Shown here: positions 3,468 through 32,731 of the stretch, in pieces
Position numbering within the stretch: position 1 is the first letter of the stretch
Layout of the letters: the number at the start of each line of letters is the position of its first letter
DNA from: a virus
IMG/VR virus record: IMGVR_UViG_3300045988_055146
Coordinates: 1-38,384 of that record
Length of the DNA: 38,384 bases
Direction: 5' to 3' (one strand)
Notes under the pieces: generated by a model
Database searches by the model: none
What the model saw: the letters and a program-made list of their open reading frames with translations, nothing else
What the model was told of the DNA's origin: nothing
Program-made: the position numbers and the translations under genes

Positions 3468-3992
3468 TGCCAGCTTGTCCTCGACCGCATCATCGTCGTC
3501 GAGAAAAGCCTCCGCCATGCAGGCGAAGAAGTCTGCGTTGTCCACGCCGAACTTCTTTGCTGCGTCGCCGTAGTCTGAGTACAGCATGTTCATTGCCGCC
3601 CAGAACTCGTGCGCCTCGCAGTCAAGCTGCTTCTTCTCCAGCAGCTTGTTTGTCTGGTCAATGCTCCAGTGCGGGCCGGTCCTGCCGTCTCCGTTGCGGA
3701 TGTGCATCATCCAGTCCTTCGCGTCTTCCCAGCTCAGGCCGCCATTGCCGTAGCCGCCGTACCCGCGGTCGTAGTCGGCGCGGCTCCCGCCGCCGGTGGT
3801 GCGCATTCCGCCGCGGCGCGCATACGGGTCTCTGTCAAAGCCTATGCGGTTAGGCTCGCGGTATCTCCGCTCCCGCTCATAGCGCGGCGTATAGTCTTCG
3901 TCATAGCGCGGCTGCCTCATGTCGTCGTAGCGTCCGTCGCGTCCGGGCTCCACGCCGCTGTCCGGCAGATATATCATGCGTGATCTCCTCAT
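3438..3992 (-). CDS. Hypothetical protein: Arg/Asp/Tyr/Gly-rich disordered N-half + helical acidic C-terminal domain
   Basis: 184-aa ORF whose ATG overlaps the upstream stop (ATGA at 3989-3992). The N-half is PRYDEDYTPRYERERRYREPNRIGFDRDPYARRGG...DYDRGYGGYGNGG. The C-half is WSIDQTNKLLEKKQLDCEAHEFWAAMNMLYSDY...FLDDDDAVEDKL. Confidence 0.75.
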   Translation of the reverse strand: MRRSRMIYLPDSGVEPGRDGRYDDMRQPRYDEDYTPRYERERRYREPNRIGFDRDPYARRGGMRTTGGGSRADYDRGYGGYGNGGLSWEDAKDWMMHIRNGDGRTGPHWSIDQTNKLLEKKQLDCEAHEFWAAMNMLYSDYGDAAKKFGVDNADFFACMAEAFLDDDDAVEDKLAVYYDCIVEH

Positions 3993-17434: not shown

Positions 17435-20400
17435 TCAGCTGTTCCACGGCGCTTCTTCAAGTTTCGCCCAGCTCTTTGTTCCCACGTCGTCGAAGTAGAC
17501 CATTGCTATCTTGTCTTTCTGCTCCGGCGTGAGGCTGAGACTGTCGATGTACGCCCACAGCTTGTCTCTCTTGGAGTTTGCTATGACCTTGCCCTTGCTG
17601 TTGTAGTCCGACTTGAACGTGCTCGCGCTGTGTCCGTTGATTATGTTCCAGTAGTCCAGCTTGCTTATCCCGCTCCCGGTTACATAGCTGTCGTAGCGCT
17701 GCGCCTGCTTGCCGGTGATCGACTTCATCGCCTCTTCGCCGCCTATCCATTCGTAGCGGTACGCCGTGTTCGCTGCTTCCTCCGGCGTGTCTCCGGCGTA
17801 CTTGATGCGGTACTCGTATACTTCCTCCTTGCTTATCCTTCCCGCATTGTATGCGTCGCGTATGCCGGTGAAGCTGTCGCCGCCCGCGTTTATGCCGGTG
17901 TCCTTTTCAAACTTCCACTGCATCACCTTGGCCTTTGCCAGCTCTTTGTTTGCTGCGATCTCCGCCGCCGTCTGCCTGGTCGTGTCGCCGTAGCCGTACT
18001 TTGCCTGAAGCTCCAGCGCCCGGCTTTCCGATATGTTGCCGTTGATAAACTCGTCGTCGATACTGCCGTATGCTATGCCCGTCACCTTTTCGCATGTCCA
18101 CTGCTCCACGGCTACTTCCGCGTCGCGCTCTGCTTTGCCGCCGTACTTTTGCAGCAGCGCCAGCGCCTCCTGCTTGGATATTGTGGCTTTCTCCGTGTCG
18201 CTGCCCTGATACCAGTCGCGTACCTGATTCTTCACGTTATTCTGTATCTTGCTCTTGAACACTCCGTGCTCTGTCAGCTCCTGCATCAGCGCGTCGTAGC
18301 TCTCCGTGTCCCCGGCCTTGACGGCGGCGTACAGATCTTCCAGCTTGTCGTTGCTGCTTCCGTCGCCGTTCCACTCGTTGATTATCCAGAACGCCTGGTC
18401 TGCGTCGTCCGCCACGCCCTGCTTCACAAGCTCCGCCATCGCATCCTCGTCCGTCATAAAGCCGTTGAGATAGCTGCTCTTGATTGCCGCCCTCGTCGTC
18501 GGCCTGTAGCTCTGCACGGTCACGCCGGAGAACGGCGCTACCACCGTGTTGTACAGCGCCACGGCGTCGCGCATTGCGTTGTAGAACGGCAGCCCGCTCA
18601 GCTGTGACACGGCTCTCAGGTTGGCTGCCAGCACTCCGTATGCCGTCAACTGCCCGTTGTAGCTCACGGCCTTCTCGCCGTCCTTTGCTCCCAGCGCCAT
18701 GGACAGCATCTTCATGTCTATGTCCCACGCTTTTTTCAGGTTCGTTATTGCCTGCATGTCCATGCGGCTCACGTCCTCCCCGCGGAAGATAGCGGCAATA
18801 TCCTTTATCACGGGTATCTTGTTGTAGATCAGCAGCTCCTGCATGAGGTTGCCTTCCATCCAGTTTCCTTCTTCGCCGAAGAGCGCCTGCTTCAGCTTCT
18901 GTGCGAAGGTCTCGTAGTCGTCGTCATCTCTCACCGCATCCCACAGCGACGCGGCCAGCACCGTTGCCGCCGAGGATGCGACGAACACCGCCATTGATTT
19001 TACTATCGCGCCCTTGTTCTTCTGCCATGCTATGGCCGCTTTCTGCTTGCTGCTGCCTCCCGCCTTGCGCATGTCCGCCCTGTAGTCTGCGTATGCGTTC
19101 AGCAGTATGTTGTAGCTCAGTGTCGGCTCCGCCATGAATGAGGTCGTGATGTTCGCCAGTATGCCCTGGTTGCGCATGTTGTGGCTCCTCGTGATCGTCG
19201 CGTCCACCACCTGCGTCTTGAGTATGACCTCGCGGAATCTCTCTGCCGTCGCCTTGCACAGCTCGTCTCCGCGCAGCTTCGTCCGGTCTGCCGTCTCCAT
19301 CCTGCACGCGCGCCACAGCGCCGCCCATGTCACGGCGTCGCCCTTCTGCGCGAAGAACATTGCCTTCTCCTTTGCCACGTCTGCAAGGCTCTCGTCGTGC
19401 ATGATCTGGCTGCGCATGCTCCTGCCTATGTCCGTGCTCACGAAGCCCAGCCCCTTCCACGTCGCAATGCCGCTGTACCTGTTCATCTCCTCACTGCTCT
19501 GCTTCCCGCTGCCGGGCTTGAGTGCCGCCGCCAGATACTTCGCGTCTATCTCCTGCGCTGCTCTCACGTATGCCGTCGGCTGCTGTATCGCCACTCGCAG
19601 GTTTGCGCCCACGGCTGCCGCCTTGTAGTTGGATACCATCCGCTTTGTCACGGCATCGCTCCTGCTCGTGCCGCCCTCGTGCTTGCCGTTCAGGTCCTTC
19701 AGCAGCGTCACCACGTACTTTTGCGCTGCCCGTCCGTATGCCGTCTCCACGCTGCGCTGCACCGTGTCCGTGTACACAAGGCCGTTGACGTTCGTCCGCT
19801 CCTTGTAGTTGTACCACTTGAGTGCGTCCAGTATCGGCAGGGTCAGTGCGTTGTACTTTGCCATGTCGCTTGAGTGATCGGTGAATACCTCGAATATGTC
19901 GCTCACCACCAGTGCGTTGTTCGCGTTGATGGTCAGCGCCTTTGTCGCGCTCAGGTTCAGCAGGCGGAACATGTCATTTGCCTTTGCGTCCGGGTCTACC
20001 GCCGGGCGGTCGTTGCTGTCCGTCTGGATAGGGAAGTAGTTCTTCTCGCCGAAGCCGCGGTACCCGAAGCGCTTCATGCTCACCTCGTTGCCCCACTCGC
20101 CGCAGGTGTCCACCATGAAATGCTGAAGCGCGTCCGCAACTTCTCTCTGCCTCTCCGTCAGCATGCCGTCCAGCATCTCAAGGTCTGCGCTGTTCGGCTT
20201 GAAGTGTTCCGTCTGCACTATTTCGTTGAGCCCCTTGCCTATGTTGCCCACGCGCAGGCCACCGCCGTACAGATGCCCTATGGCCTGTGCTCTCTTGCGC
20301 AGGCAGTGCAGGCTCATCAGCTGCGCCGTCGTTATCGTGAACTTGTCTCCGTTCTCAAACTTTACTTCGTGCGTCTCCTCGCGCCATGTCCGCGCCTCCT

Positions 20401-23400
20401 TCGCCGTGTACAGCCCCTCCGTGAAGTCTATGATCTTCTTTGCGTTGAACGCCATCTGTTCCCAGCCCTTTGATATTCCCTCGAAGATAGCCTTGCCGCC
20501 CTCTCCGAAGCGCTGGAACGCATAGAACGGCGTGGTGTTGTCCCAGAAGCCGAACGCCGCAAGCCCTGTCTTTGCCGCCTTGCCCTGCTTGCCGAGCTTG
20601 CCCAGCTCCTCTATGCTGTTCTGCGACGCCTGCTGCACGCTCCTGTACCGGCTGTTCGCCATCAGCTGGTTTGTCTTTTTCACAGACGTGGACAGCACCG
20701 TCAGCAGCGTGTCCAGATGCCGCAGCTCTTCCGCCGTCATGTCGTTCACGGTGAATGTCTTTCCGGTCTCAGCGAACTTGTTTGCTATGCGTATGAAGTC
20801 CTTGACCTGCTCCATCATGTCCGAGGGCATGTCAATGTACACGTCCAGCGCACTCTCCGTGTCCGCACCGCTCATGTACTTCTGCTGGTTCTCAAGCACA
20901 TCCCGCAGCGCTGAGAGCTTCGATGCAAACTTCCTGTCGTTCGCCGTCTCCTCTCCGCCGCGCAGCTGCTGCCTTGACGTGAAGTCTATAGTCGTCAGGA
21001 AGTCGCCCACGGTTTTCTTCAGCACCTCCGGCACATGCTCCTTCGCACTGTTGTTGAGCATCCAGTCCGTCAGCTGTGCCGCCGTCGCGGTCACGCTGTC
21101 CTTGTACTTCTTTATGCCGGCGTTCTCCCTGCGGCGCTGCTGGGCGTTCTGCATCATCTGCTGGTAGTAGTTTCTTGTCTGCTCTACCTTCTCCCACTTG
21201 GCCACCTTCTCCTTTGCCACGGCCTCCTGCTTGCGCGCCACGCCCTCCTGATACACCTGCTGTATGCGTTCCTGCATCCGGCTCTTCATGTCGTTGTAGC
21301 GCGTGCGCTCTTCGGCCACGGCCTTGTTCATCCGGTCTCTCGCACGGTCCGCCGCAGTCTTTGCCGTCTGGCGTATCTCGTCTGAGAGCATCGTGTCCAG
21401 TATGTCCTGCGCCACGGTCTCGCGCATCTCGCCCATGTAGTTTTCAAACGGGTTCCCGCGCACCGGCTGCCATGCCCGTTCCATGTCCGCTATGTGGAAC
21501 AGCATGTCGCTCTGGCTCGTGATGGTTGACGGGAACGCGCCCTCGCCGAACTTCTCCTGCAGCTCCATCCACGCCGTGTCTATCGGCAGTCCGTCCTTGC
21601 CGAAGCGGATGCGCCTGTGCTCCCGCTTCCAGCCCTCCGGCAGGTCCAGCATCTCCCGCTCGTTTATCTTCAGCTTGTTGCTCTTGAGGTAGTCCAGCAG
21701 CTCGCGCCGCGCGTCCTCCATCCCGCTCTCTATCTCTGCCTCCGAGCCGGACAGTATGTGATCCGCTATTGCTGCCGCCCAGTCTTTCAGCTCTGCATAG
21801 CTCAGCTCCTGCCCGTCCGTCTGCACTATGTAGTCGCCCATGCGCTTGAGTTCTTCCTTCACGGTGTCCTCTGCGTCCTTGTTGTGCAGCTCCTCGGTCA
21901 GCCGCCGTGCAAGCTTGTCCGTGTCTGTCTTGCGCACAGTGGCCTCCTTCGTCGTCCGCGTCTGTCCCTTCCAGTATTCCGCGCGCCGCCGAAGCTCTTC
22001 GTTCTGCCTCCGCAGCTCTGCGTAGCTTTCCTGCCTGCCGCGCCGCTCGTCCGCCGTGTCGTCCGCCGCCACGTCGCGCATGGAGTAGCGGAACTGCCCA
22101 AGGTCTGACGGCTGCGCCGGTACGGTGCCATTGTCGAAGTACTCGTTGATGTCGTTGATTATTCTCTTTGAGTACGTGCGCTTTGGGTATTCTATGCTGA
22201 CCACCGTGTCGCCGTTGGCGTTGTCAATGTCCAGTGTCACTTCTCCTCTGAAGCTGGATATGTATCTGTCCAATACGTCGAGCTGCTTTGCATTCGGTTT
22301 TGTGCTGAGGTTTATGCCGCCGCTCTCCGGCGATAGCCTAATATTTCCCGCCTGCATAAACTGCACCATGCCGCCGCTGTAGCTGCCGTCGCCGTAGTCT
22401 CCGTCAAAGGCGTCAGTTATATCCCTGTGGTCTACAGTTCTATAGCCGCCCGGCGCGCCCTCGTGCCGCCCGCTCATGTCCAGCAGTTTGCCATCTCTCA
22501 GCAGATACCCGGCCTCTGCTATCTTGTATGTCGTGCCGAAATACTTTTCTGCCGTCTTGACGTCCGCCGCATCATCCCGCTCGCGCATGGAAAATTTGGT
22601 ATTGCCATTTTCATTGCCTCGTGATATACTAACCATAGAAGTGTCACTGAGGAATTTAGACTTTGGGGTTTTCCCGTATGAGCTAATGATGTCCTCAGTG
22701 GCATTTCTTATTTTTGTTATGTCCTTGAATCTGCGTCCGTTCTTATTGTTTTCAATGTTTATTACTCCGTCGAAGTATTCATCCCCAACTTTGAAGGTCA
22801 CGTCAAAATAAGTAAATCCGCCAGTTGCATTCTTGTGAACATGTCCATCACGTCCGTCAGCGGCAGTCCTGTAATTTCTCCCGGCCTCTATCAGATTGTC
22901 TAGTTCAGGAGCGGCACGCATCTTTGCTTCTTTTACCTGTTCGTCTTTGATAAACCTTGACGGATATGCATATTCATTTGCTGATGCGTTATTAACGAAA
23001 GCTCTATTTGAGCTTCCCACAACTTTGCCAGCAAAGCGGCTCTTTATTATTTCTCTTGCTTTGCTGGTCATCTCTTCCTGTGTCAGCCCATTAAATGCGT
23101 CTTGATCTGTTTTGACATCAACATATTTAGTCCCGTCCTCAAACTCCCTAAGTGAATACTTTGCATTCTTGCTCACGGTCTCATTCCCGCTCGCCGTCTC
23201 CGCGTTCCTCACGGCGCCGGCAAGGGCGCTGTCCCATATCTGCTGCAGCTCGTCCGCATACTTCATCATGGCCTTTGCCTCTGCGTGCCGCGCCTCCACT
23301 CCCGTGAAAGCCTTCCGCAGCTTCTCCGCAAAGTTTGCTATCCATTCCCGGATCTGTTCATACAGGCCCGGGTTTTCTTTTGCCATGATCTCCGGCAGCT

Positions 23401-26320
23401 GCGTGTCCTCCAGCATCATCTCGCAGCTGTCCGCTATCACTTCCTCCACTGCCTCGTCCATGGAAAGCAGTCCGTTCTCGCGCGCTGCCTTCTGCTCTGC
23501 CAGCGCCTCTATGTCTGCGCCGTCCTCTATCAGGTGCCGCGTCACGAAGTCGCGCAGCTGTGCGTAGCCCTCCGCGTTGTTCTCCCGGATGTAGTGCGTC
23601 AGCTCATGCGCCGCCGTCAGCAGCACGGCGGATTCCTCTGAGGTTCTGTTTGCCCCTGCGTTCACGTCAAGGTACATTGTCCCGTTGCGCATGAAGCCGT
23701 TGGCTCCCTTGTACCTTCCGGTCATGTCCGCCTCTGACTGGTAGAATACAACGTCCGTCCCCGTGATCTTTGCCAGCGTCTTTATCACGTCCAGCTCTGT
23801 GCTGCTCACCATGTCCTCGCTCGCAGCTTTGTATCTCTCTCCGCCGTAGTCCACGTCCTGCCCGAAGTACACCTTGCCCTCGCCGCGCTGCCGGGCTGCG
23901 CTGTTCTGTATGCGCGCATCCTTGCTGCTCCTGCCGGTGTTGAATGCTTTCGTGAACTGCTCCTGCGTCAGCACGCTTCCCGCGCCGCCGTTCCTGCGGC
24001 TGCTCTCATATGCCTGCTGCGCTGTCACTGCCGTCTGCTTGCCGTACATGTCCGCCGCCGTGGTGTATGCCCGCACGTAGGTGTCGAAGTCCCCGCCGTT
24101 GTCCTCCGGCCTGTAGCTCAGCAGCATCTCGTCGCCGTATGCGTAGGGGCGCACGCTGTCCAGCATTCTCTGCGTCTCCGCGTCAAAGGTCAGCTTGTCC
24201 TCCGTCACGTCCCGTGTTCTCCCGTCCGGCATCTGCACCCTCGCTGTGAACTTGCCGCCGTCCTGCACTATGGCCTTTATCTGTCCTACCTCGCCCCTGT
24301 ATGCGGCCTCCAGTATTCCGTCCGGCCGGCGTGTGTTCTGCGTGCCCTGCGGTCTCTCCGTGGCCTGCTGTACCTGCTGTGCCGTCTGCTGTACCGGCAA
24401 AGTCCCGTCCTCCAGCACGGCGTCGATGGCCCACACTCTATCTGCCCCATACTTTTCTTCGAGCTCTTTGCGCCGGGCGTCGTATCGTTTCCATTCCGCG
24501 GGATCTTCTTCTATCTGCTGCCCCGTGCGCCCGTCGAATCTTCCCCTTGGGACATCCGGCCTCATGCCTTTAAGCTCCACCATGTCCCTGAAGAACTCAG
24601 GTTCATTTTTTTCTATGTCCCTGTATAGCTCCTGCGGGGTCTGCCGCGCCCATTCCGGTGTCTCTTCCTGCGTGCCCTGCGGGTACTGCGTGCCCTGCGC
24701 CTCCTGTGTCTGCGCCTCCTCCTGTACCGGCGTCCGTCTCCTCGGTGTCTGCGCGCTCTCAATCCCGCTCTCCACGCGGTCAGCCGCCGGACCTCCGTGT
24801 ACCTCGGCCACGCTGTCGCGGTATCTGCGCTGCGCTCTGCCGTTCTCTATGGCATACGCGCCCGCGGTCGCCGCAGTCTGCCCGCCGCCCAGCACGGCAG
24901 ACACCACCGCTGCGCCTATCGCTTCTTCTTTCATGCGGTTCGGGTTTATCATTGCGCCCTCATCTGTGGTGGAGTACAGCGGCACATCCTTGTATACAGA
25001 CTTGAGCCCGCTCTCGCCTATGCCCTGTATGATCTCTTCGCTCATCTCCGAGGGGATGCCCTTTACTATTTGCATCAGTGCGCTGTTGTCTGCACGTTCA
25101 AGGGCGGCGCGGATATTCTTCGGCAGCTTCTGCAAGCCGCCCCACATATCATCCGTGCCGCCTATCTCCGTCGTTGCATTGTATGCCGCATTCAGTATCG
25201 CGTATAGTGACGCCTGCTCTTCGCTTGCCCCATCCTCCAGCGCGTTCTCGTAGCTATCGCCCACAACGCTCATGAACGTAAATCCCCAGTTTGGGTCTGC
25301 TGCCATGTCCGCTGTCGCCTTGAGTATCGGCGTCACTATCTGTGCCGCCCTGCTGCTGTTCGCCAGCGTTGACGCCGCTTGCAGTGCCTCCGTTGTTGCC
25401 TGCGCCGCTGTCGATGTTCCGCCGGACAACAGCGCCATCATCGACATGGGCAGCGAGTTCATCACCATTTCGGTATACTTGCCGACTGTCTGTGCTGCCT
25501 TGCTGTCGCTTGCCGCCCGCGCTGCTTCCTCGTGCTGCAAGTTTATTCTGCGGTTGCCTTCCTCTATGTACTGCCGCAGAAAATTGTCGTCCCCGTATGT
25601 GTAGTTTGGGTTTATCACTCGCCCCGCCTTGGTCACAAGCCCTGCCGCATCGTCGGCAAGGCTGGGGCTTATGTCGTTTACCGTCACTCCGGCAAGCGTC
25701 CGCAGCTCATCTGCGAAGCCTCCGAATGCCCAGTCTAATCCCTTTGCTATCGCGTTGTCCGCGCTTGTCAGTCCCGCTCGTGTGCTCCACTTCACTGTGT
25801 CCCACCAGTCCGTCGGTGTCCACAGCGTGCCGCCCGCTTCCTCCACGCGCTTCTTGTACGCCTCCACAAGCGCGTCTGCCTCGTCCATCTTGTTCTTGGC
25901 CGTGGTATAGTCCGCCGTGCCCCTGCCTTTACCTGCGGCCTCTACGGCGCGGCGTGCCTTGTTGTAGTCGATGTACGCCTGCTTGTACTTCTGGTTGAGG
26001 TCTGCTATCTCTGCTTCTTTCCGCCGCTCCGCGCCGAGGTCTACGCCCCGCCACCCGTGTTCCTCAAGATATGCCTGCCGGGTAGGGCTTACCTTGCCGC
26101 GTCCCTTGTCGTTGTTTACGATGCCGTTCCACTTGTTGCTCTGCTTGTCCAGGTAGTCCTGCCTCGTCCACGACTGCCCGCGGCTGTCCTTGAAAGTCCC
26201 GCTGCTCTGTGTGCTCGTACTGCTTCCTGTATACTCCTCGCCTCTGGCGCGGGCTATGTTCCGCTCACGCTCTTCATGCACACGCGCTATGTTCTGTTCC
26301 CGCTCTTCTCTTGTAGACAT
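17435..26320 (-). CDS. Giant (2,961-aa) multidomain virion / internal head protein with zincin-like HExxH motif; polyvalent-protein-like
   Basis: Single uninterrupted ORF with an AAGGAGG RBS, lying between the portal/Prp genes and the scaffold. The HExxH motif is AAHELTHYI (23594-23608). It has hydrophobic and Ala-rich N-terminal segments, several coiled coils, and a C-terminal set of about 45-aa helical repeats (EALALLQKYGG..., RALELQAKYGYG..., EVYEYRIKYAG...). Confidence 0.9.
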   Translation of the reverse strand: MSTREEREQNIARVHEERERNIARARGEEYTGSSTSTQSSGTFKDSRGQSWTRQDYLDKQSNKWNGIVNNDKGRGKVSPTRQAYLEEHGWRGVDLGAERRKEAEIADLNQKYKQAYIDYNKARRAVEAAGKGRGTADYTTAKNKMDEADALVEAYKKRVEEAGGTLWTPTDWWDTVKWSTRAGLTSADNAIAKGLDWAFGGFADELRTLAGVTVNDISPSLADDAAGLVTKAGRVINPNYTYGDDNFLRQYIEEGNRRINLQHEEAARAASDSKAAQTVGKYTEMVMNSLPMSMMALLSGGTSTAAQATTEALQAASTLANSSRAAQIVTPILKATADMAADPNWGFTFMSVVGDSYENALEDGASEEQASLYAILNAAYNATTEIGGTDDMWGGLQKLPKNIRAALERADNSALMQIVKGIPSEMSEEIIQGIGESGLKSVYKDVPLYSTTDEGAMINPNRMKEEAIGAAVVSAVLGGGQTAATAGAYAIENGRAQRRYRDSVAEVHGGPAADRVESGIESAQTPRRRTPVQEEAQTQEAQGTQYPQGTQEETPEWARQTPQELYRDIEKNEPEFFRDMVELKGMRPDVPRGRFDGRTGQQIEEDPAEWKRYDARRKELEEKYGADRVWAIDAVLEDGTLPVQQTAQQVQQATERPQGTQNTRRPDGILEAAYRGEVGQIKAIVQDGGKFTARVQMPDGRTRDVTEDKLTFDAETQRMLDSVRPYAYGDEMLLSYRPEDNGGDFDTYVRAYTTAADMYGKQTAVTAQQAYESSRRNGGAGSVLTQEQFTKAFNTGRSSKDARIQNSAARQRGEGKVYFGQDVDYGGERYKAASEDMVSSTELDVIKTLAKITGTDVVFYQSEADMTGRYKGANGFMRNGTMYLDVNAGANRTSEESAVLLTAAHELTHYIRENNAEGYAQLRDFVTRHLIEDGADIEALAEQKAARENGLLSMDEAVEEVIADSCEMMLEDTQLPEIMAKENPGLYEQIREWIANFAEKLRKAFTGVEARHAEAKAMMKYADELQQIWDSALAGAVRNAETASGNETVSKNAKYSLREFEDGTKYVDVKTDQDAFNGLTQEEMTSKAREIIKSRFAGKVVGSSNRAFVNNASANEYAYPSRFIKDEQVKEAKMRAAPELDNLIEAGRNYRTAADGRDGHVHKNATGGFTYFDVTFKVGDEYFDGVINIENNKNGRRFKDITKIRNATEDIISSYGKTPKSKFLSDTSMVSISRGNENGNTKFSMRERDDAADVKTAEKYFGTTYKIAEAGYLLRDGKLLDMSGRHEGAPGGYRTVDHRDITDAFDGDYGDGSYSGGMVQFMQAGNIRLSPESGGINLSTKPNAKQLDVLDRYISSFRGEVTLDIDNANGDTVVSIEYPKRTYSKRIINDINEYFDNGTVPAQPSDLGQFRYSMRDVAADDTADERRGRQESYAELRRQNEELRRRAEYWKGQTRTTKEATVRKTDTDKLARRLTEELHNKDAEDTVKEELKRMGDYIVQTDGQELSYAELKDWAAAIADHILSGSEAEIESGMEDARRELLDYLKSNKLKINEREMLDLPEGWKREHRRIRFGKDGLPIDTAWMELQEKFGEGAFPSTITSQSDMLFHIADMERAWQPVRGNPFENYMGEMRETVAQDILDTMLSDEIRQTAKTAADRARDRMNKAVAEERTRYNDMKSRMQERIQQVYQEGVARKQEAVAKEKVAKWEKVEQTRNYYQQMMQNAQQRRRENAGIKKYKDSVTATAAQLTDWMLNNSAKEHVPEVLKKTVGDFLTTIDFTSRQQLRGGEETANDRKFASKLSALRDVLENQQKYMSGADTESALDVYIDMPSDMMEQVKDFIRIANKFAETGKTFTVNDMTAEELRHLDTLLTVLSTSVKKTNQLMANSRYRSVQQASQNSIEELGKLGKQGKAAKTGLAAFGFWDNTTPFYAFQRFGEGGKAIFEGISKGWEQMAFNAKKIIDFTEGLYTAKEARTWREETHEVKFENGDKFTITTAQLMSLHCLRKRAQAIGHLYGGGLRVGNIGKGLNEIVQTEHFKPNSADLEMLDGMLTERQREVADALQHFMVDTCGEWGNEVSMKRFGYRGFGEKNYFPIQTDSNDRPAVDPDAKANDMFRLLNLSATKALTINANNALVVSDIFEVFTDHSSDMAKYNALTLPILDALKWYNYKERTNVNGLVYTDTVQRSVETAYGRAAQKYVVTLLKDLNGKHEGGTSRSDAVTKRMVSNYKAAAVGANLRVAIQQPTAYVRAAQEIDAKYLAAALKPGSGKQSSEEMNRYSGIATWKGLGFVSTDIGRSMRSQIMHDESLADVAKEKAMFFAQKGDAVTWAALWRACRMETADRTKLRGDELCKATAERFREVILKTQVVDATITRSHNMRNQGILANITTSFMAEPTLSYNILLNAYADYRADMRKAGGSSKQKAAIAWQKNKGAIVKSMAVFVASSAATVLAASLWDAVRDDDDYETFAQKLKQALFGEEGNWMEGNLMQELLIYNKIPVIKDIAAIFRGEDVSRMDMQAITNLKKAWDIDMKMLSMALGAKDGEKAVSYNGQLTAYGVLAANLRAVSQLSGLPFYNAMRDAVALYNTVVAPFSGVTVQSYRPTTRAAIKSSYLNGFMTDEDAMAELVKQGVADDADQAFWIINEWNGDGSSNDKLEDLYAAVKAGDTESYDALMQELTEHGVFKSKIQNNVKNQVRDWYQGSDTEKATISKQEALALLQKYGGKAERDAEVAVEQWTCEKVTGIAYGSIDDEFINGNISESRALELQAKYGYGDTTRQTAAEIAANKELAKAKVMQWKFEKDTGINAGGDSFTGIRDAYNAGRISKEEVYEYRIKYAGDTPEEAANTAYRYEWIGGEEAMKSITGKQAQRYDSYVTGSGISKLDYWNIINGHSASTFKSDYNSKGKVIANSKRDKLWAYIDSLSLTPEQKDKIAMVYFDDVGTKSWAKLEEAPWNS

Positions 26321-31091: not shown

Positions 31092-31483
31092 TGTGCCGCC
31101 TCCTCCGTGCCTTCGGCAAACTCTATGCTCATGCCGCCGTCCCGCTCTCCTGTCTCAATAGCCGTGTATCTTTTGAGCAGCTCCGTCCCTGCCTTGATCC
31201 TGTCCGCCAGCTGTGCGTCCAGGCCAAACTGATCCGCTACCTCTCCCCGCATTACGGATGAGAGGAAGCGCAGCACCTCGTTTGTCTTGGCTATCTCCGC
31301 CTCGTCTATCTCGCGCAGGCGCTCGCGTATATACTCCTCCACATCAGCATCTTTCAGCAGCCTGTAGCCTGTCGTCCGCGCGCTCTTGGCGGAGTACCCG
31401 GCCTCGACCGCCGCCTGCGTCTGGTTGTTGAGGCGGATGTACGCCTCCGCAAATCTCTGTTTTTTAGGTGGCAGCCTCTTCAT
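31088..31483 (-). CDS. terS: Terminase small subunit (Terminase_2 / P27-like)
   Basis: LPPKKQRFAEAYIRLNNQTQAAVEAGYSAKSARTTGYRLLKDADVEEYI is the typical N-terminal HTH of this family. AAGGAGG RBS. Confidence 0.85.
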   Translation of the reverse strand: MKRLPPKKQRFAEAYIRLNNQTQAAVEAGYSAKSARTTGYRLLKDADVEEYIRERLREIDEAEIAKTNEVLRFLSSVMRGEVADQFGLDAQLADRIKAGTELLKRYTAIETGERDGGMSIEFAEGTEEAAQ

Positions 31484-31697
31484 CCTGTGCCTCCTTGTAC
31501 ATCTTTGCCAGCTCCTGCACCACTGCGGCCACGGAATATGTCTTGAGTATCAGCTTGTTGTCCTCCCGTATCTGCCAGCATGTCAGCACCTTGTCGTACT
31601 TGATGCTGTAAAACTGCCGGGAGTTGAGGCTGATGTTCCGCCCGCGCATTATCAGCGCCTGCTGCAAACGCTTTGCCGTGTCTCTCATGCTGCGCAT
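31464..31697 (-). CDS. Hypothetical protein, first gene of the late operon
   Basis: 77-aa ORF with a GGGAGGG RBS. It lies about 30 nt downstream of copy 2 of the 47-bp late element. Confidence 0.65.
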   Translation of the reverse strand: MRSMRDTAKRLQQALIMRGRNISLNSRQFYSIKYDKVLTCWQIREDNKLILKTYSVAAVVQELAKMYKEAQDEEAAT

Positions 31698-31833: not shown

Positions 31834-31862
31834 TTGACATATCACCCAATGAGTGATAATAT
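31834..31862 (+). promoter_or_regulatory. Near-consensus promoter TTGACA-17-TAATAT with embedded operator TATCAC-N7-GTGATA
   Basis: TTGACA is at 31834-31839 and TAATAT at 31857-31862. A perfect inverted repeat at 31840-31858 fills the spacer. An A-tract / UP-like element and the CTCAAAA-TTTT-TTTTGAG palindrome lie upstream (31800-31833). Confidence 0.65.
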
Positions 31863-31913: not shown

Positions 31914-32207
31914 ATGAACGAGAACAACATGATCAACATCAACGCAGACGATCTCCGCACGGTAGCGGAGGAGACCAAGGACAAGAGGCTCGGGAGATTC
32001 AGCGCCGAGTATTATCAGCTCAGTTATGACCCGCGCACCGGCGAGCTGTGGACAGATTTTCACTGCTCTCTCGGCGGCAATGAGCACACGGTGTACCGTG
32101 ATGAGGAGATCATTCCTTGCGGCAATCTCCGCAGGCGGTACACTGAGGCAGAGCTGCGCGAGCTCGTGGAGCTCTGCGTGGAGGAGCGAGAGGCAGGTGT
32201 GCGTTGA
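31914..32207 (+). CDS. Small acidic hypothetical protein (anti-CRISPR candidate by context)
   Basis: 97-aa ORF, rich in Glu/Asp, with no motif I recognise. It is the first gene after the operator-containing promoter, and its stop overlaps the start of the HTH gene. Confidence 0.7.
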   Translation: MNENNMININADDLRTVAEETKDKRLGRFSAEYYQLSYDPRTGELWTDFHCSLGGNEHTVYRDEEIIPCGNLRRRYTEAELRELVELCVEEREAGVR

Positions 32208-32431
32208 CTATCCGGGAGCTCAGAGCACGGACAGGGCTCACGCAGGCGGCGTTTGCTGCGGCGCTGCACATCCCCAAGCGCAGCATTGAAAACTGGGAGG
32301 GCGGCGGCAGAACGCCGCCTGCCTATCTCGTTGAGCTGATCGAGTACCGGGTCGCGCACGATCCGGACTTGACAGGCTCGCGCAGTCTTGATAAAATGCA
32401 CGTGTCAGGCGGGAAACCGCCTGTGGATTGA
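32204..32431 (+). CDS. Small XRE-type HTH regulator (Aca-like by context)
   Basis: 75 aa. IRELRARTGLTQAAFAAALHIPKRSIENWEGGGRTPPAYLVELI is a canonical XRE HTH. The TTG start overlaps the upstream TGA. The last 9 codons and the stop lie inside the CRISPR-repeat-like element. Confidence 0.8.
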   Translation: MTIRELRARTGLTQAAFAAALHIPKRSIENWEGGGRTPPAYLVELIEYRVAHDPDLTGSRSLDKMHVSGGKPPVD

Positions 32432-32434
32432 AAC
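32404..32434 (+). ncRNA. Solitary type I-C-like CRISPR repeat unit (candidate RNA anti-CRISPR / Cas5d-processing site)
   Basis: The sequence is GTC-AGGCGG-GAAA-CCGCCT-GTGGATTGAAAC. The GTC head, a 6-bp stem with a tetraloop, and the GTGGATTGAAAC tail match the type I-C repeat architecture. There is a single copy, with a terminator 21 nt downstream. Confidence 0.6.
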
Positions 32435-32455
32435 ACAACTACCACATGCGCGCAG

Positions 32456-32488
32456 AAAAAGGGCGGCCAATAACTGGCCGCCCTTTTT
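32456..32488. terminator. Bidirectional rho-independent terminator
   Basis: AAAAA-GGGCGGCCA-ATAAC-TGGCCGCCC-TTTTT is a perfect 9-bp stem. It lies between the convergent plus-strand operon and the end of the early operon. Confidence 0.85.
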
Positions 32489-32497
32489 CTGCGTTCT

Positions 32498-32731
32498 TCA
32501 TTCGATCTCATATTTCCTCATTGTCATCTGGTATACCGGGCAGCGCTCATAAGGCCCCACGCAGTGCCGCCCCATGTAGGAATCCTTTGCCCGCAGTGTG
32601 GAGAACTGCATGCTCAGCTTCATTTTATCCGCAAAGCCCTCGCATACTATGTCGCGCTTGCCTGCCCGCTCGCCCATGAAGAACGGGCAGCGCACGTCGG
32701 CTGCGTTCCACGTCTCCTTGTGGTTGGCCAT
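32498..32731 (-). CDS. Hypothetical Cys-rich small protein
   Basis: 77-aa ORF with an AAGGAGG RBS. Cys pattern is CPFF...IVCEG...HCVGPYERCPVY. Confidence 0.7.
   Translation of the reverse strand: MANHKETWNAADVRCPFFMGERAGKRDIVCEGFADKMKLSMQFSTLRAKDSYMGRHCVGPYERCPVYQMTMRKYEIE

Follow-up and report, generated by a model that had tools for sequence, protein, structure and literature searches.

What does a gut phage do with a single CRISPR repeat? The viral record IMGVR_UViG_3300045988_055146, whose whole 38,384-nucleotide stretch is our window, carries a lone type I-C-like repeat at the 3' end of two small genes arranged like an anti-CRISPR (acr) operon with its regulator (aca). The genes of the window include terminase, portal and capsid, and among the ORFs checked none was annotated as cas. 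A solitary viral repeat without cas is a mark of the RNA anti-CRISPRs (Racrs), a kind of element described since 2023 (Camara-Wilpert et al., Nature 2023, PMC10651486). An initial annotation of this DNA had proposed such an RNA anti-CRISPR, linked to the acr-aca-like operon, and our comparison with about 12 relatives supports that candidate.

The 31-mer GTCAGGCGGGAAACCGCCTGTGGATTGAAAC reads on the plus strand as the initial annotation had given it (32404-32434). It is present once in the window at up to 3 mismatches with no second repeat nearby, which bears out the earlier description of one copy without repeat-spacer periodicity. The unit has the features of the I-C repeat class, namely a 5' GTC, a G+C-rich stem of 6-7 bp, a loop of 4-5 nt and a G followed by the 11-nt TGGATTGAAA(C/T). 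Its layout (3 + 6 + 4 + 6 + 1 + 11 nt) equals that of the typed I-C repeat GTCGCACCCTCACGGGTGCGTGGATTGAAAC (PMC10651486 supplement), to which it is identical at all 15 non-stem, non-loop positions, the exact 12-nt tail GTGGATTGAAAC among them, and at 18 of 31 positions overall. The 6-bp stem AGGCGG/CCGCCT with its GAAA loop is present in the minimum-free-energy fold of the region, and the I-C architecture with a retained stem-loop that had been claimed for it thus holds. A search for GTC-N16-GTGGATTGAAAY with at most 1 mismatch returned 1 match in the window against 0.01 expected from shuffles. The 31-mer is far beyond a chance match, and the solitary I-C-like repeat is confirmed as a real feature. 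Direct repeats separated by spacers of about 33-36 nt, as in an array, were not found nearby, the unit is single in all relatives as well, and the reading as a mini-array was rejected since a second repeat is absent. General RNA models did not recognize the element: an Rfam scan gave nothing at the gathering threshold, the best of the curated CRISPR-DR models was CRISPR-DR9 at 14.9 bits (cutoff 45, E = 1.4), and a tRNA scan and Rfam in E-value mode gave nothing useful. Heptamers of the repeat stem are also present elsewhere in the operon.

The operon itself consists of a small ORFan followed by a helix-turn-helix (HTH) regulator under a palindromic promoter, with cargo that varies between relatives, which is the layout of acr-aca operons. 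Palindromes occupy the place equivalent to the operon promoter P1 in related operons too. The 97-aa ORFan is the acr candidate in the window. It has only 4 homolog clusters, neither it nor 9 cargo proteins matched Pfam, PHROG or PDB sequences, homology of the 97-aa protein to a validated anti-CRISPR was likewise not found in these collections, and its AlphaFold2 model was unusable (pLDDT 47). A homolog of the 97-aa protein, 70% identical (L011), stands beside a different small regulator, RHH-like by sequence reading only, and in L018 the operon region starts with an 82-aa GerE-like gene with weak sigma-factor/HTH-like PHROG matches (best E = 0.0015). Upstream cargo is variable in L012, L018, L019, L022, L027 and L032. 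The C-terminal tail of the HTH protein overprints both the internal promoter P2 and the repeat, and more distant HTH homologs that lack the tail in the alignment are 57-65 aa long. The stop codon of the gene (TGA, 32429-32431) lies inside ATTGAAAC, in agreement with the initial annotation.

P2 sits within the 3' end of the HTH gene and ends 6 nt 5' of the repeat, so that its predicted start (about 32404) would be about the first repeat base. Racrs were selected for resemblance to a repeat in sequence and fold, for a promoter no more than 250 bp away and for nearness to acr genes (PMC10651486). P2 lies well within that distance upstream of the repeat and is kept in all relatives. The repeat had been placed at the 3' end of the operon transcript, which read-through from P1 would still allow, but it is not merely the end of the operon mRNA because it has its own conserved promoter. 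The predicted RNA of about 100 nt would run from the repeat through its handle and a 17-nt spacer-like stretch to a strong terminator hairpin. This hairpin does not begin 21 nt after the repeat, as first reported: the stem starts at 32450 and the gap is about 15 nt (32435-32449). The terminator region has fold z-scores of -9.4 and -9.0, and a different hairpin occupies its place in relatives. One transcription unit thus combines a repeat-like unit with a short spacer-like stretch and with a terminator or 3' hairpin, as in the phage RNAs called Cracrs.

Features of the acr-aca-like operon and of the repeat module (positions in the window).
Feature	Position	Strand	Details and basis
Operon promoter P1	31834-31862	+	-35 TTGACA 31834-31839, -10 TAATAT 31857-31862; promoter scan 10/12 with TG
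Operator-like palindrome of P1	TATCAC 31840-31845 / GTGATA 31853-31858		between the P1 boxes; sequence
97-aa ORFan, acr candidate	31914-32207	+	ORF list; no Pfam, PHROG or PDB-sequence match
75-aa HTH protein, Aca-like	32204-32431	+	HTH domain residues 2-48; Pfam HTH_31 and HTH_3
Internal promoter P2	32369-32397	+	-35 TTGACA 32369-32374, 17-nt spacer; promoter scan 11/12 with TG
Extended -10 of P2	TG 32389-32390, TAAAAT 32392-32397	+	near-consensus sigma-70
Solitary type I-C-like repeat unit	32404-32434	+	sequence GTCAGGCGGGAAACCGCCTGTGGATTGAAAC, fold, relatives
Parts of the repeat	stem 32407-32412 / 32417-32422; loop 32413-32416; G 32423		GTC; stem; loop GAAA; G; 11-nt 5'-handle-like tail
5'-handle-like tail TGGATTGAAAC	32424-32434	+	same 11 nt as in the 5' handle of type I-C crRNAs
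Spacer-like stretch ACAACTACCACATGCGC	32435-32451	+	conservation among relatives
Intrinsic terminator	32450-32503	+	20-bp stem, 5-nt loop, T-rich tail; terminator scan; doubles as 3' hairpin of the predicted RNA

Gut metagenomes yielded about 12 distinct versions of the module, in at least 3 phage contexts in which the upstream ORFan cargo varies and the downstream terminators are swapped. Column variation was counted across 10 distinct modules. In P2 none of the 6 columns of the -35 box and 1 of the 9 of the TG and -10 box vary, against 10 of 14 in the promoter spacer and 5 of 6 in the discriminator (together 15/20). The repeat varies in 8 of 31 columns and the spacer-like stretch in 2 of 17, fewer than promoter spacer and discriminator in both cases (Fisher's exact test, p = 1.2e-3 and p = 1.9e-4 respectively). 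Measured against third codon positions, conservation is only marginally higher in the spacer-like stretch (p = 0.04) and not higher in the repeat (p = 0.24), the relatives being shallowly diverged. The spacer-like stretch (15-17 nt) is the most conserved part of the module. It varies at positions 1 and 2 only, where two lineages carry changes that would fall in the seed of a guide, its 5' end is AAAAC in most relatives, and AACTACCACATGCGC is invariant in 15 of 15 flank variants. Within the repeat the inner 4 bp of the stem never vary and the loop is GNAA in all variants but one; an outer stem pair is broken in two variants. Compensatory covariation was not seen in the repeat stem among the relatives, and we dropped it as support for the hairpin as there are no double changes among the variants.

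That the stretch might be conserved only as protein, a possibility the initial annotation had itself raised against the RNA proposal, is rejected, because the repeat nucleotides are conserved and the overlapping peptide tail is not. Six of the 7 changes in the part of the repeat inside the ORF are nonsynonymous. The P2 spacer is 17 or 18 nt long among relatives, and in two lineages (L008 and L034/L035) the 18-nt form shifts the HTH frame to a stop in TGATAA, 5' of an intact repeat, with promoter, repeat and 17 nt all kept. In L015-L017, 18 residues of the HTH core are lost and the RNA module is kept. Selection appears to act on the RNA and not on the protein, given the nonsynonymous repeat changes and the HTH frames that stop before an intact repeat. 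Inverted gene fragments 3' of the module (L001, L002, L019 and L020) were considered as acquired spacers and rejected, because the repeat is not duplicated, a TTC PAM is missing and the register is wrong; one of these cases lies in a scaffold with an N gap.

We then looked for a host array and for a target. A degenerate repeat pattern (stem core GGCGG/CCGCCNG plus tail) had 0 matches in 185,579 species genomes, which thus yielded neither a host array nor a prophage copy. In viral contigs the exact 31-mer and two patterns of tail plus spacer had 0 matches, and blastn of the operon gave no match among GenBank phages. TTC or AAC followed by the exact full 17 nt occurs twice in the 185,579 species genomes, once in a MAG of Lachnospiraceae and once in a MAG of soil Bryobacteraceae, by ECF-sigma and kinase genes. 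Neither match lies near cas genes, and both were judged to be chance and rejected as targets. The PAM-flanked 17 nt had 0 exact full-length matches in viral contigs, and no PAM-flanked match of at least 11 nt is present in the phage window or in the compared loci. The host may tentatively be placed in the Oscillospiraceae, the hint being one terminase, 70% identical, in an Oscillospiraceae MAG. A terminase with 99% identity is encoded on a 265-kb contig, and a look-up of cluster members gave no host name. According to one paper, a type I-C system is conserved in clade A of Faecalibacterium prausnitzii.

Taken together these observations make it probable that the element is an RNA anti-CRISPR, acting as a decoy or as a guide. 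In the mechanism that we propose, P2 would give an RNA that starts at about the first repeat base and ends at the terminator hairpin, and read-through from P1 would give the same RNA 3' end. Cas5c of the host would recognize hairpin and tail and cut 3' of the stem, between 32423 and 32424 if processing follows that of the crRNA-like RNAs (crlRNAs) of type I-C, which are cut directly 3' of the hairpin and have an 11-nt handle, a 3' hairpin, a 16-bp guide and a TTC PAM (bioRxiv 10.1101/2024.12.27.630466). The product, a handle with about 15-17 single-stranded nt and a 3' hairpin, could nucleate a shortened Cas5-Cas7 complex and so divert Cas subunits from phage-targeting crRNAs, which would be the Racr mode. 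In the Cracr mode the complex would also be guided, without cleavage, to a host promoter, either of cas or of a CRISPR-guarded defence or toxin gene. The RNA would act jointly with the protein encoded upstream. We favour the guide mode, if only as a possibility that falls short of probable, because the spacer-like stretch is the most conserved part and because its length and position match the 16-bp guide of single-repeat I-C crRNA-like RNAs. The conserved 15-17 nt suggest a crRNA-like RNA no less than a simple decoy.

One possibility, somewhat doubtful in our view and yet the strongest of the alternatives, is that the RNA is a pure decoy of the Racr type, which would sequester Cas subunits in an aberrant subcomplex with the 17 nt not serving as a DNA guide but conserved for folding, stability or termination, or simply by close kinship of the relatives. 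This is the default class for viral solitary repeats with a promoter, and the element fits the selection features published for Racrs (PMC10651486). The exact searches of the phage, the species genomes and the viral contigs found no target for the 17 nt, its seed positions 1 and 2 vary, and most variants are predicted to form a weak GUGG/CCAC helix that pairs the handle with the tail, all of which a decoy would accommodate. Sequestration alone however does not predict 15 invariant nt after the handle while the repeat varies in 8 of 31 columns, and the helix has only 4-5 bp and is lost in the L018 variant.

It is quite unlikely that the element is a non-functional remnant, either what is left of a decaying phage mini-array or a crRNA-like gene captured from a host, carried along with aca. 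A remnant would explain a solitary copy with weakened outer stem pairs in some variants and neither host array nor target in the 185,579 species genomes, but not why the promoter boxes, the inner stem, the handle and the tail persist next to unconstrained columns of which 15 of 20 vary, nor why the module survives across phage backbones even with a damaged HTH gene. Very unlikely as well is that the repeat mainly serves as a site in cis at which Cas5c would cut the acr-aca mRNA made from P1, with a non-stop aca message, less repressor and more acr expression only in I-C-positive cells as the outcome. The geometry suggests it, since the stop codon (32429-32431) lies 3' of the predicted cut and in about 10 of 12 variants the HTH stop stays inside the handle; against it the ORF of L008 and L034/L035 ends before the repeat and yet repeat, promoter and 17 nt are kept, a dedicated conserved promoter starting at the repeat would not be needed, and a frame that stays open over about 20 codons can easily arise by chance. 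Hardly more credible is a double duty in which the RNA would be a crRNA-like decoy or guide in trans and also a sensor of the host I-C system in cis. In most variants the aca stop lies a few bases 3' of the predicted cut, within the handle, and cutting by Cas5c would leave a non-stop aca message, giving less Aca repressor and thus high expression of the anti-CRISPR operon only in cells with an active I-C system. A sensor in cis would not be essential, because L008 and L034/L035 stop aca upstream of the repeat. That a coding hairpin, an attenuator or a DNA site for an operator or recombination resembles an I-C repeat by coincidence is the least probable of all, for although the Rfam CRISPR-DR models do not recognize it and its stem heptamers recur in the operon, it agrees at 15 of 15 defining positions including the exact 12-nt tail (0.01 matches expected), the peptide tail of the HTH protein is not conserved, and the operator-like palindromes are at P1 and not at the repeat.

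If the RNA anti-CRISPR reading were correct, the module would be a type I-C-specific marker of a small and hypervariable anti-defence locus carried by uncultured phages of the human gut, whose hosts are probably Oscillospiraceae, and the upstream ORFans (the 97-aa family and cargo of 75/92, 81, 96, 128 and 166 aa) would deserve priority as candidates for new anti-CRISPR proteins against type I-C. It would also mean that a repeat mimic need not resemble real array repeats as long as it retains GTC, a short hairpin that is stable, and the 12-nt tail. Searches by homology to known repeats, on which the published catalogues of Racrs were built, would then overlook elements of this sort. The arrangement would be unusually compact, with promoter and RNA gene overprinted on the 3' end of a regulator gene.

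From a comparative point of view the element has affinities with several known systems. Virus-borne mini-CRISPR arrays and solitary repeat units are an earlier bioinformatic finding (PMC10651486 ref. 4; reviewed in PMC11656645), and the phage element shares with them a CRISPR repeat in a viral genome without cas, directly 3' of a promoter. Mini-arrays have at least 2 repeats and a full-length spacer against a competing virus, whereas the phage element has one repeat and a single-stranded stretch of 15-17 nt without a match in viral contigs.

Cracr RNAs are crRNA-like RNAs of phages that repress Cas or CreT; their spacers are shorter than those of immune crRNAs, and I-C-directed members have been reported (Liu et al., bioRxiv 10.1101/2024.10.29.618823). 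The likeness lies in a repeat-like unit, a short spacer-like stretch and a terminator, phage-encoded outside CRISPR-Cas loci. Cracrs are also tightly linked to anti-CRISPR genes with an HTH regulator function (acrIF24), and the phage module is similar in this. What defines a Cracr is agreement with a host CreR/CreA spacer over at least 9 PAM-proximal positions, or else a target predicted in a cas or creT promoter (bioRxiv 10.1101/2024.10.29.618823); for the phage element exact full-length searches with the 17 nt gave no target match. The I-C Cracr arrays of the preprint have two spacers, and the phage element is a single unit.

In anatomy the element is like the host I-C crlRNAs, such as the Nezha-regulating crlRNA of Neisseria, a host type I-C crRNA-like RNA from a solitary repeat unit (bioRxiv 10.1101/2024.12.27.630466). 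The layout agrees nucleotide for nucleotide, cut and guide being predicted in the phage case. These host RNAs sit in host cas operons and repress an adjacent defence gene via a TTC-flanked site, in contrast to the phage element which is phage-borne, adjoins an acr-aca-like operon and gave no target in the exact searches.

A precedent in genomic setting is RacrIC1, which directly follows an acrIC5 homologue in a prophage of Bifidobacterium pseudocatenulatum (PMC10651486), so that the arrangement of an acr gene with a solitary type I-C repeat is already published. Both are solitary I-C-like repeats of a phage or prophage that come immediately after an operon of anti-CRISPR type, with a promoter upstream and a repeat that can be co-transcribed with the protein gene, and for both engagement of I-C Cas proteins would be expected. 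RacrIC1 was tested experimentally and the phage element is known from its sequence. RacrIC1 also resembles real array repeats (29 of 34 positions to the PAO1::IC repeat), whereas the phage stem matches no array in the 185,579 species genomes. What sets the phage element apart from RacrIC1 is that its repeat and promoter overlap the 3' end of the aca-like gene, and that a conserved 17-nt stretch follows the repeat.

Positions 32404-32434 (+), read directly, carry GTCAGGCGGGAAACCGCCTGTGGATTGAAAC, the type I-C-like CRISPR repeat that the initial annotation had placed there, and even with as many as 3 mismatches allowed the window contains no second copy, in keeping with its description as solitary. 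The layout is 3 + 6 + 4 + 6 + 1 + 11 nt, and the 6-bp stem (AGGCGG/CCGCCT) with its GAAA loop is retained in the minimum-free-energy fold. An identical layout is found in GTCGCACCCTCACGGGTGCGTGGATTGAAAC, typed as I-C in the supplement to the paper on RNA anti-CRISPR decoy repeat units (Racrs; PMC10651486). Against this repeat the proposed I-C architecture with 15 matching positions holds: 15/15 positions that belong to neither stem nor loop agree, and the different stem brings overall identity down to only 18/31. The reading frame of the HTH (aca-like) gene terminates, also as annotated, at the TGA within ATTGAAAC in the repeat tail. The stem heptamers CAGGCGG and CCGCCTG recur within a perfect 12-nt inverted repeat of the HTH gene (32242-32253/32311-32322), and a third CAGGCGG lies at 32131 within the acr-candidate gene. 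In the long transcript from the operon promoter P1 these copies could compete with the repeat hairpin; codon usage may be their simple cause.

The window is of phage origin (small and large terminase, P22/SU10-type portal, capsid protein, tail lysozyme, replication initiator, methyltransferase) and nearly all its phage genes are on the minus strand, the element lying in a short plus-strand island with minus-strand genes on both sides. A promoter scan puts the expected start of P2, a promoter-like element inside the HTH tail, at about 32404, where the repeat begins. The predicted primary transcript of about 100 nt consists of the repeat hairpin, an 11-nt handle (32424-32434) like the 5' handle of I-C crRNAs, about 15 single-stranded nt and the terminator hairpin. 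In window-type phages two conserved 77-aa ORFan genes bracket the island (32498-32731 (-), Cys-rich with several Cys in its translation, and 31464-31697 (-)), both without a Pfam family. Elsewhere, a 2961-aa ORF (17435-26320 (-)) has no Pfam match at E <= 0.001; the sole match of its counterpart in the related locus L034 is a weak one to LPD3 (large polyvalent protein).

Features of the plus-strand island and of related gut-metagenome loci (L numbers), with variable alignment columns
Feature	Position	Strand	Variable columns	Remarks
P1	-35 TTGACA 31834; -10 TAATAT 31857	+		operator-like palindrome TATCAC/GTGATA between boxes
97-aa ORFan (acr candidate)	31914-32207	+		
HTH gene, 75 aa	32204-32431	+	36/165 (coding region); codon positions 1/2/3: 6/55, 8/55, 22/55	Pfam HTH match limited to residues 2-48
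P2	TTGACA 32369-32374; 17 nt; TG-n-TAAAAT 32389-32397	+	-35 0/6; spacer 10/14; TG plus -10 1/9; discriminator 5/6	promoter-like, inside HTH tail; 11/12, extended -10
Repeat	32404-32434	+	8/31	
Spacer-like stretch ACAACTACCACATGCGC	32435-32451	+	2/17 (positions 1 and 2 only); next 7 nt 4/7	directly after repeat
Terminator	32450-32494	+		20-bp stem, T-rich tail
Extra ORFan cargo	L012 3726-4004; L018 1429-2119; L019 1302-2022; L022 1899-2144; L032 1922-2212			
Inverted copies in terminator loops	L001 3256-3310 (also L003); L002/L004 3256 to contig end; L019 ~2675-2740; L020 ~1395-1440; L021 ~2762 to end			

The viral contig collection contains no exact match to the 31-mer, and the operon has no similarity to GenBank phages. 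Exact-protein look-up, pattern scanning of metagenomes and searches for homologs placed the module (P2, repeat, 17-nt stretch) in gut-metagenome contigs L001-L008, L012, L015-L024 and L027-L035, among which are 15 flank variants and 10 full modules, all distinct. At least three backbones carry it: in one, as in the window, it adjoins the terminase genes, in another it follows a lysis cassette (L015-L022, L032), and L007 and L027 offer other contexts. Between P1 and the trio of 97-aa ORFan, HTH gene and RNA, relatives have extra small ORFans (75/92, 81, 96, 128, 85 and 166 aa) with 0 PHROG matches; the 92-aa one of L012, the only one searched against PDB sequences, had no match there. This site looks like a hypervariable slot for anti-defence cargo. 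In these contigs the repeat is linked to an operon of acr-aca-like type whose cargo varies. Only 4 homolog clusters make up the 97-aa family, and in L011 a 70% identical homolog is followed by a small protein, which by eye we take to be RHH-like, and a terminator, with no repeat; a tRNA-Gln gene (3811-3884 (-)) lies just upstream. Tail and repeat are missing from more distant HTH homologs, namely 57-65-aa proteins, the L013 copy and those of L009/L010. The L013 gene (2501-2758) is 90% identical and has bacterial-looking neighbours (acyltransferase, SNF-family transporter, LRR protein), the likeness to the phage module stopping right past TTGACAGACTCG; it could hint at the host or at the source of the aca gene.

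Downstream terminator hairpins differ between relatives. In five related assemblies the terminator loop contains inverted copies of nearby genes, among them a 33-nt copy, at 97%, of the adjacent 77-aa gene and fragments of the acr-candidate gene in reverse complement. The L002 sequence looks inverted and its contig ends there, L019 has an N gap, and the window terminator is clean. These pieces are not spacers, since the repeat is not duplicated, a TTC PAM is missing and they lie in the wrong register. They probably arose at the 20-bp palindrome through template switching or as fold-back chimeras, either in vivo or in the course of library preparation or assembly.

The initial annotation had considered that the repeat might be conserved only at the protein level. 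We reject this because, of the 7 changes that the repeat shows within the ORF, 6 replace an amino acid (tail peptides SGGKPPVD, SGGQPPVG, SGGKSPVY, SSGKPPVD, SGGEPPVD and SGGHPPVD), because an 18-nt P2 spacer in L008 and L034/L035 shifts the frame so that the TGA of TGATAA ends the HTH ORF before it reaches a repeat, handle and 17 nt that are all intact, and because L015 (1114-1287), L016 and L017 (proteins P0021/P0022) have lost the helix-turn-helix core by an in-frame 18-residue deletion and kept promoter, repeat and 17-nt stretch. In these three loci the RNA module thus outlives the regulator. In this shallowly diverged set, with columns taken as independent and phylogeny ignored, the 17-nt stretch and the repeat vary less than P2 spacer and discriminator combined, where 15/20 columns vary (p = 1.9e-4 and 1.2e-3 by Fisher's exact test); against third codon positions p was 0.04 and 0.24, respectively. 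Conserved boxes, a free spacer and a conserved transcribed part form the pattern of a promoter plus RNA gene. Read from nucleotide changes, the variants show a solitary I-C-like repeat flanked by a conserved putative promoter and a terminator, under selection on RNA and not protein.

We propose that Cas5c would cut between 32423 and 32424, and that the product (handle, 15-17 nt, hairpin) would assemble a short Cas5-Cas7 complex competing with immune crRNAs. Since the 15-17 nt match known I-C guides in length and no other part is as conserved, the complex may in addition be directed to a host promoter. The module is probably an RNA anti-CRISPR of either mode. Action as a guide, like that of Cracrs (phage crRNA-like RNAs with a guide), is plausible, if tentative: TTC (the I-C PAM) or AAC plus the full 17 nt had two chance-level matches in genomes, with no cas context, and none in viral contigs, and no PAM-flanked match of at least 11 nt was found in the phage or retrieved loci. 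A pure decoy (Racr) is only slightly less likely, the conserved stretch speaking against it. The accessible part of the Racr supplement (PMC10651486) has more than 120 solitary repeats with a GTGGATTGAAAC end, typed I-C in the entries seen, none of which matches the window stem. Likewise, none of 185,579 species-representative genomes contains an array or prophage that combines the stem core GGCGG-N4-CCGCC with this tail. The only hint to the host, possibly Oscillospiraceae, comes from terminases: one with 70% identity bears the name of an Oscillospiraceae MAG, and copies with 99% identity lie on contigs as long as 265 kb. Faecalibacterium prausnitzii clade A has been reported to have a conserved type I-C system. 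Among the variants no compensatory double change is seen, an outer stem pair is broken in two and one change gives a G·U pair; the inner 4 pairs and TTGAAA are invariant, and the loop is GAAA, GCAA or GGAA with a single exception, GCAT. A non-functional remnant is unlikely. A cis-acting Cas5c site or sensor, sharing the predicted cut within the long transcript, is slightly less probable still beside a module with its own promoter. The element was not recognised in an Rfam search, but GTC-N16-GTGGATTGAAAY occurs once in the window at up to 1 mismatch against 0.01 expected, and a non-CRISPR coincidence is hardly credible; the little that is left falls to other explanations.

The RNA anti-CRISPR reading has close precedents. 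Racrs are solitary repeat units that viruses carry together with a promoter; one of them, RacrIC1, immediately follows an acrIC5 homologue and is co-transcribed with it, each alone inhibiting type I-C (PMC10651486). Host type I-C crRNA-like RNAs have a single repeat-like unit cut directly 3' of the hairpin, an 11-nt 5' handle and a 3' hairpin end, and a 16-bp guide by a TTC PAM represses a promoter (bioRxiv 10.1101/2024.12.27.630466). Cracrs, phage mimics of such RNAs, include I-C-directed ones and often show tight linkage to acr genes, acrIF24 being one (bioRxiv 10.1101/2024.10.29.618823); their repeat, short spacer and terminator are exactly the anatomy seen here. Both the arrangement of acr with a solitary I-C repeat and phage crRNA-like RNAs are thus already published. 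Particular to this element are a stem unlike any array found, an invariant short spacer-like stretch, a putative promoter plus RNA gene overprinting the 3' end of an aca-like gene, and the stop codon of that gene just 3' of the predicted Cas5c cut.
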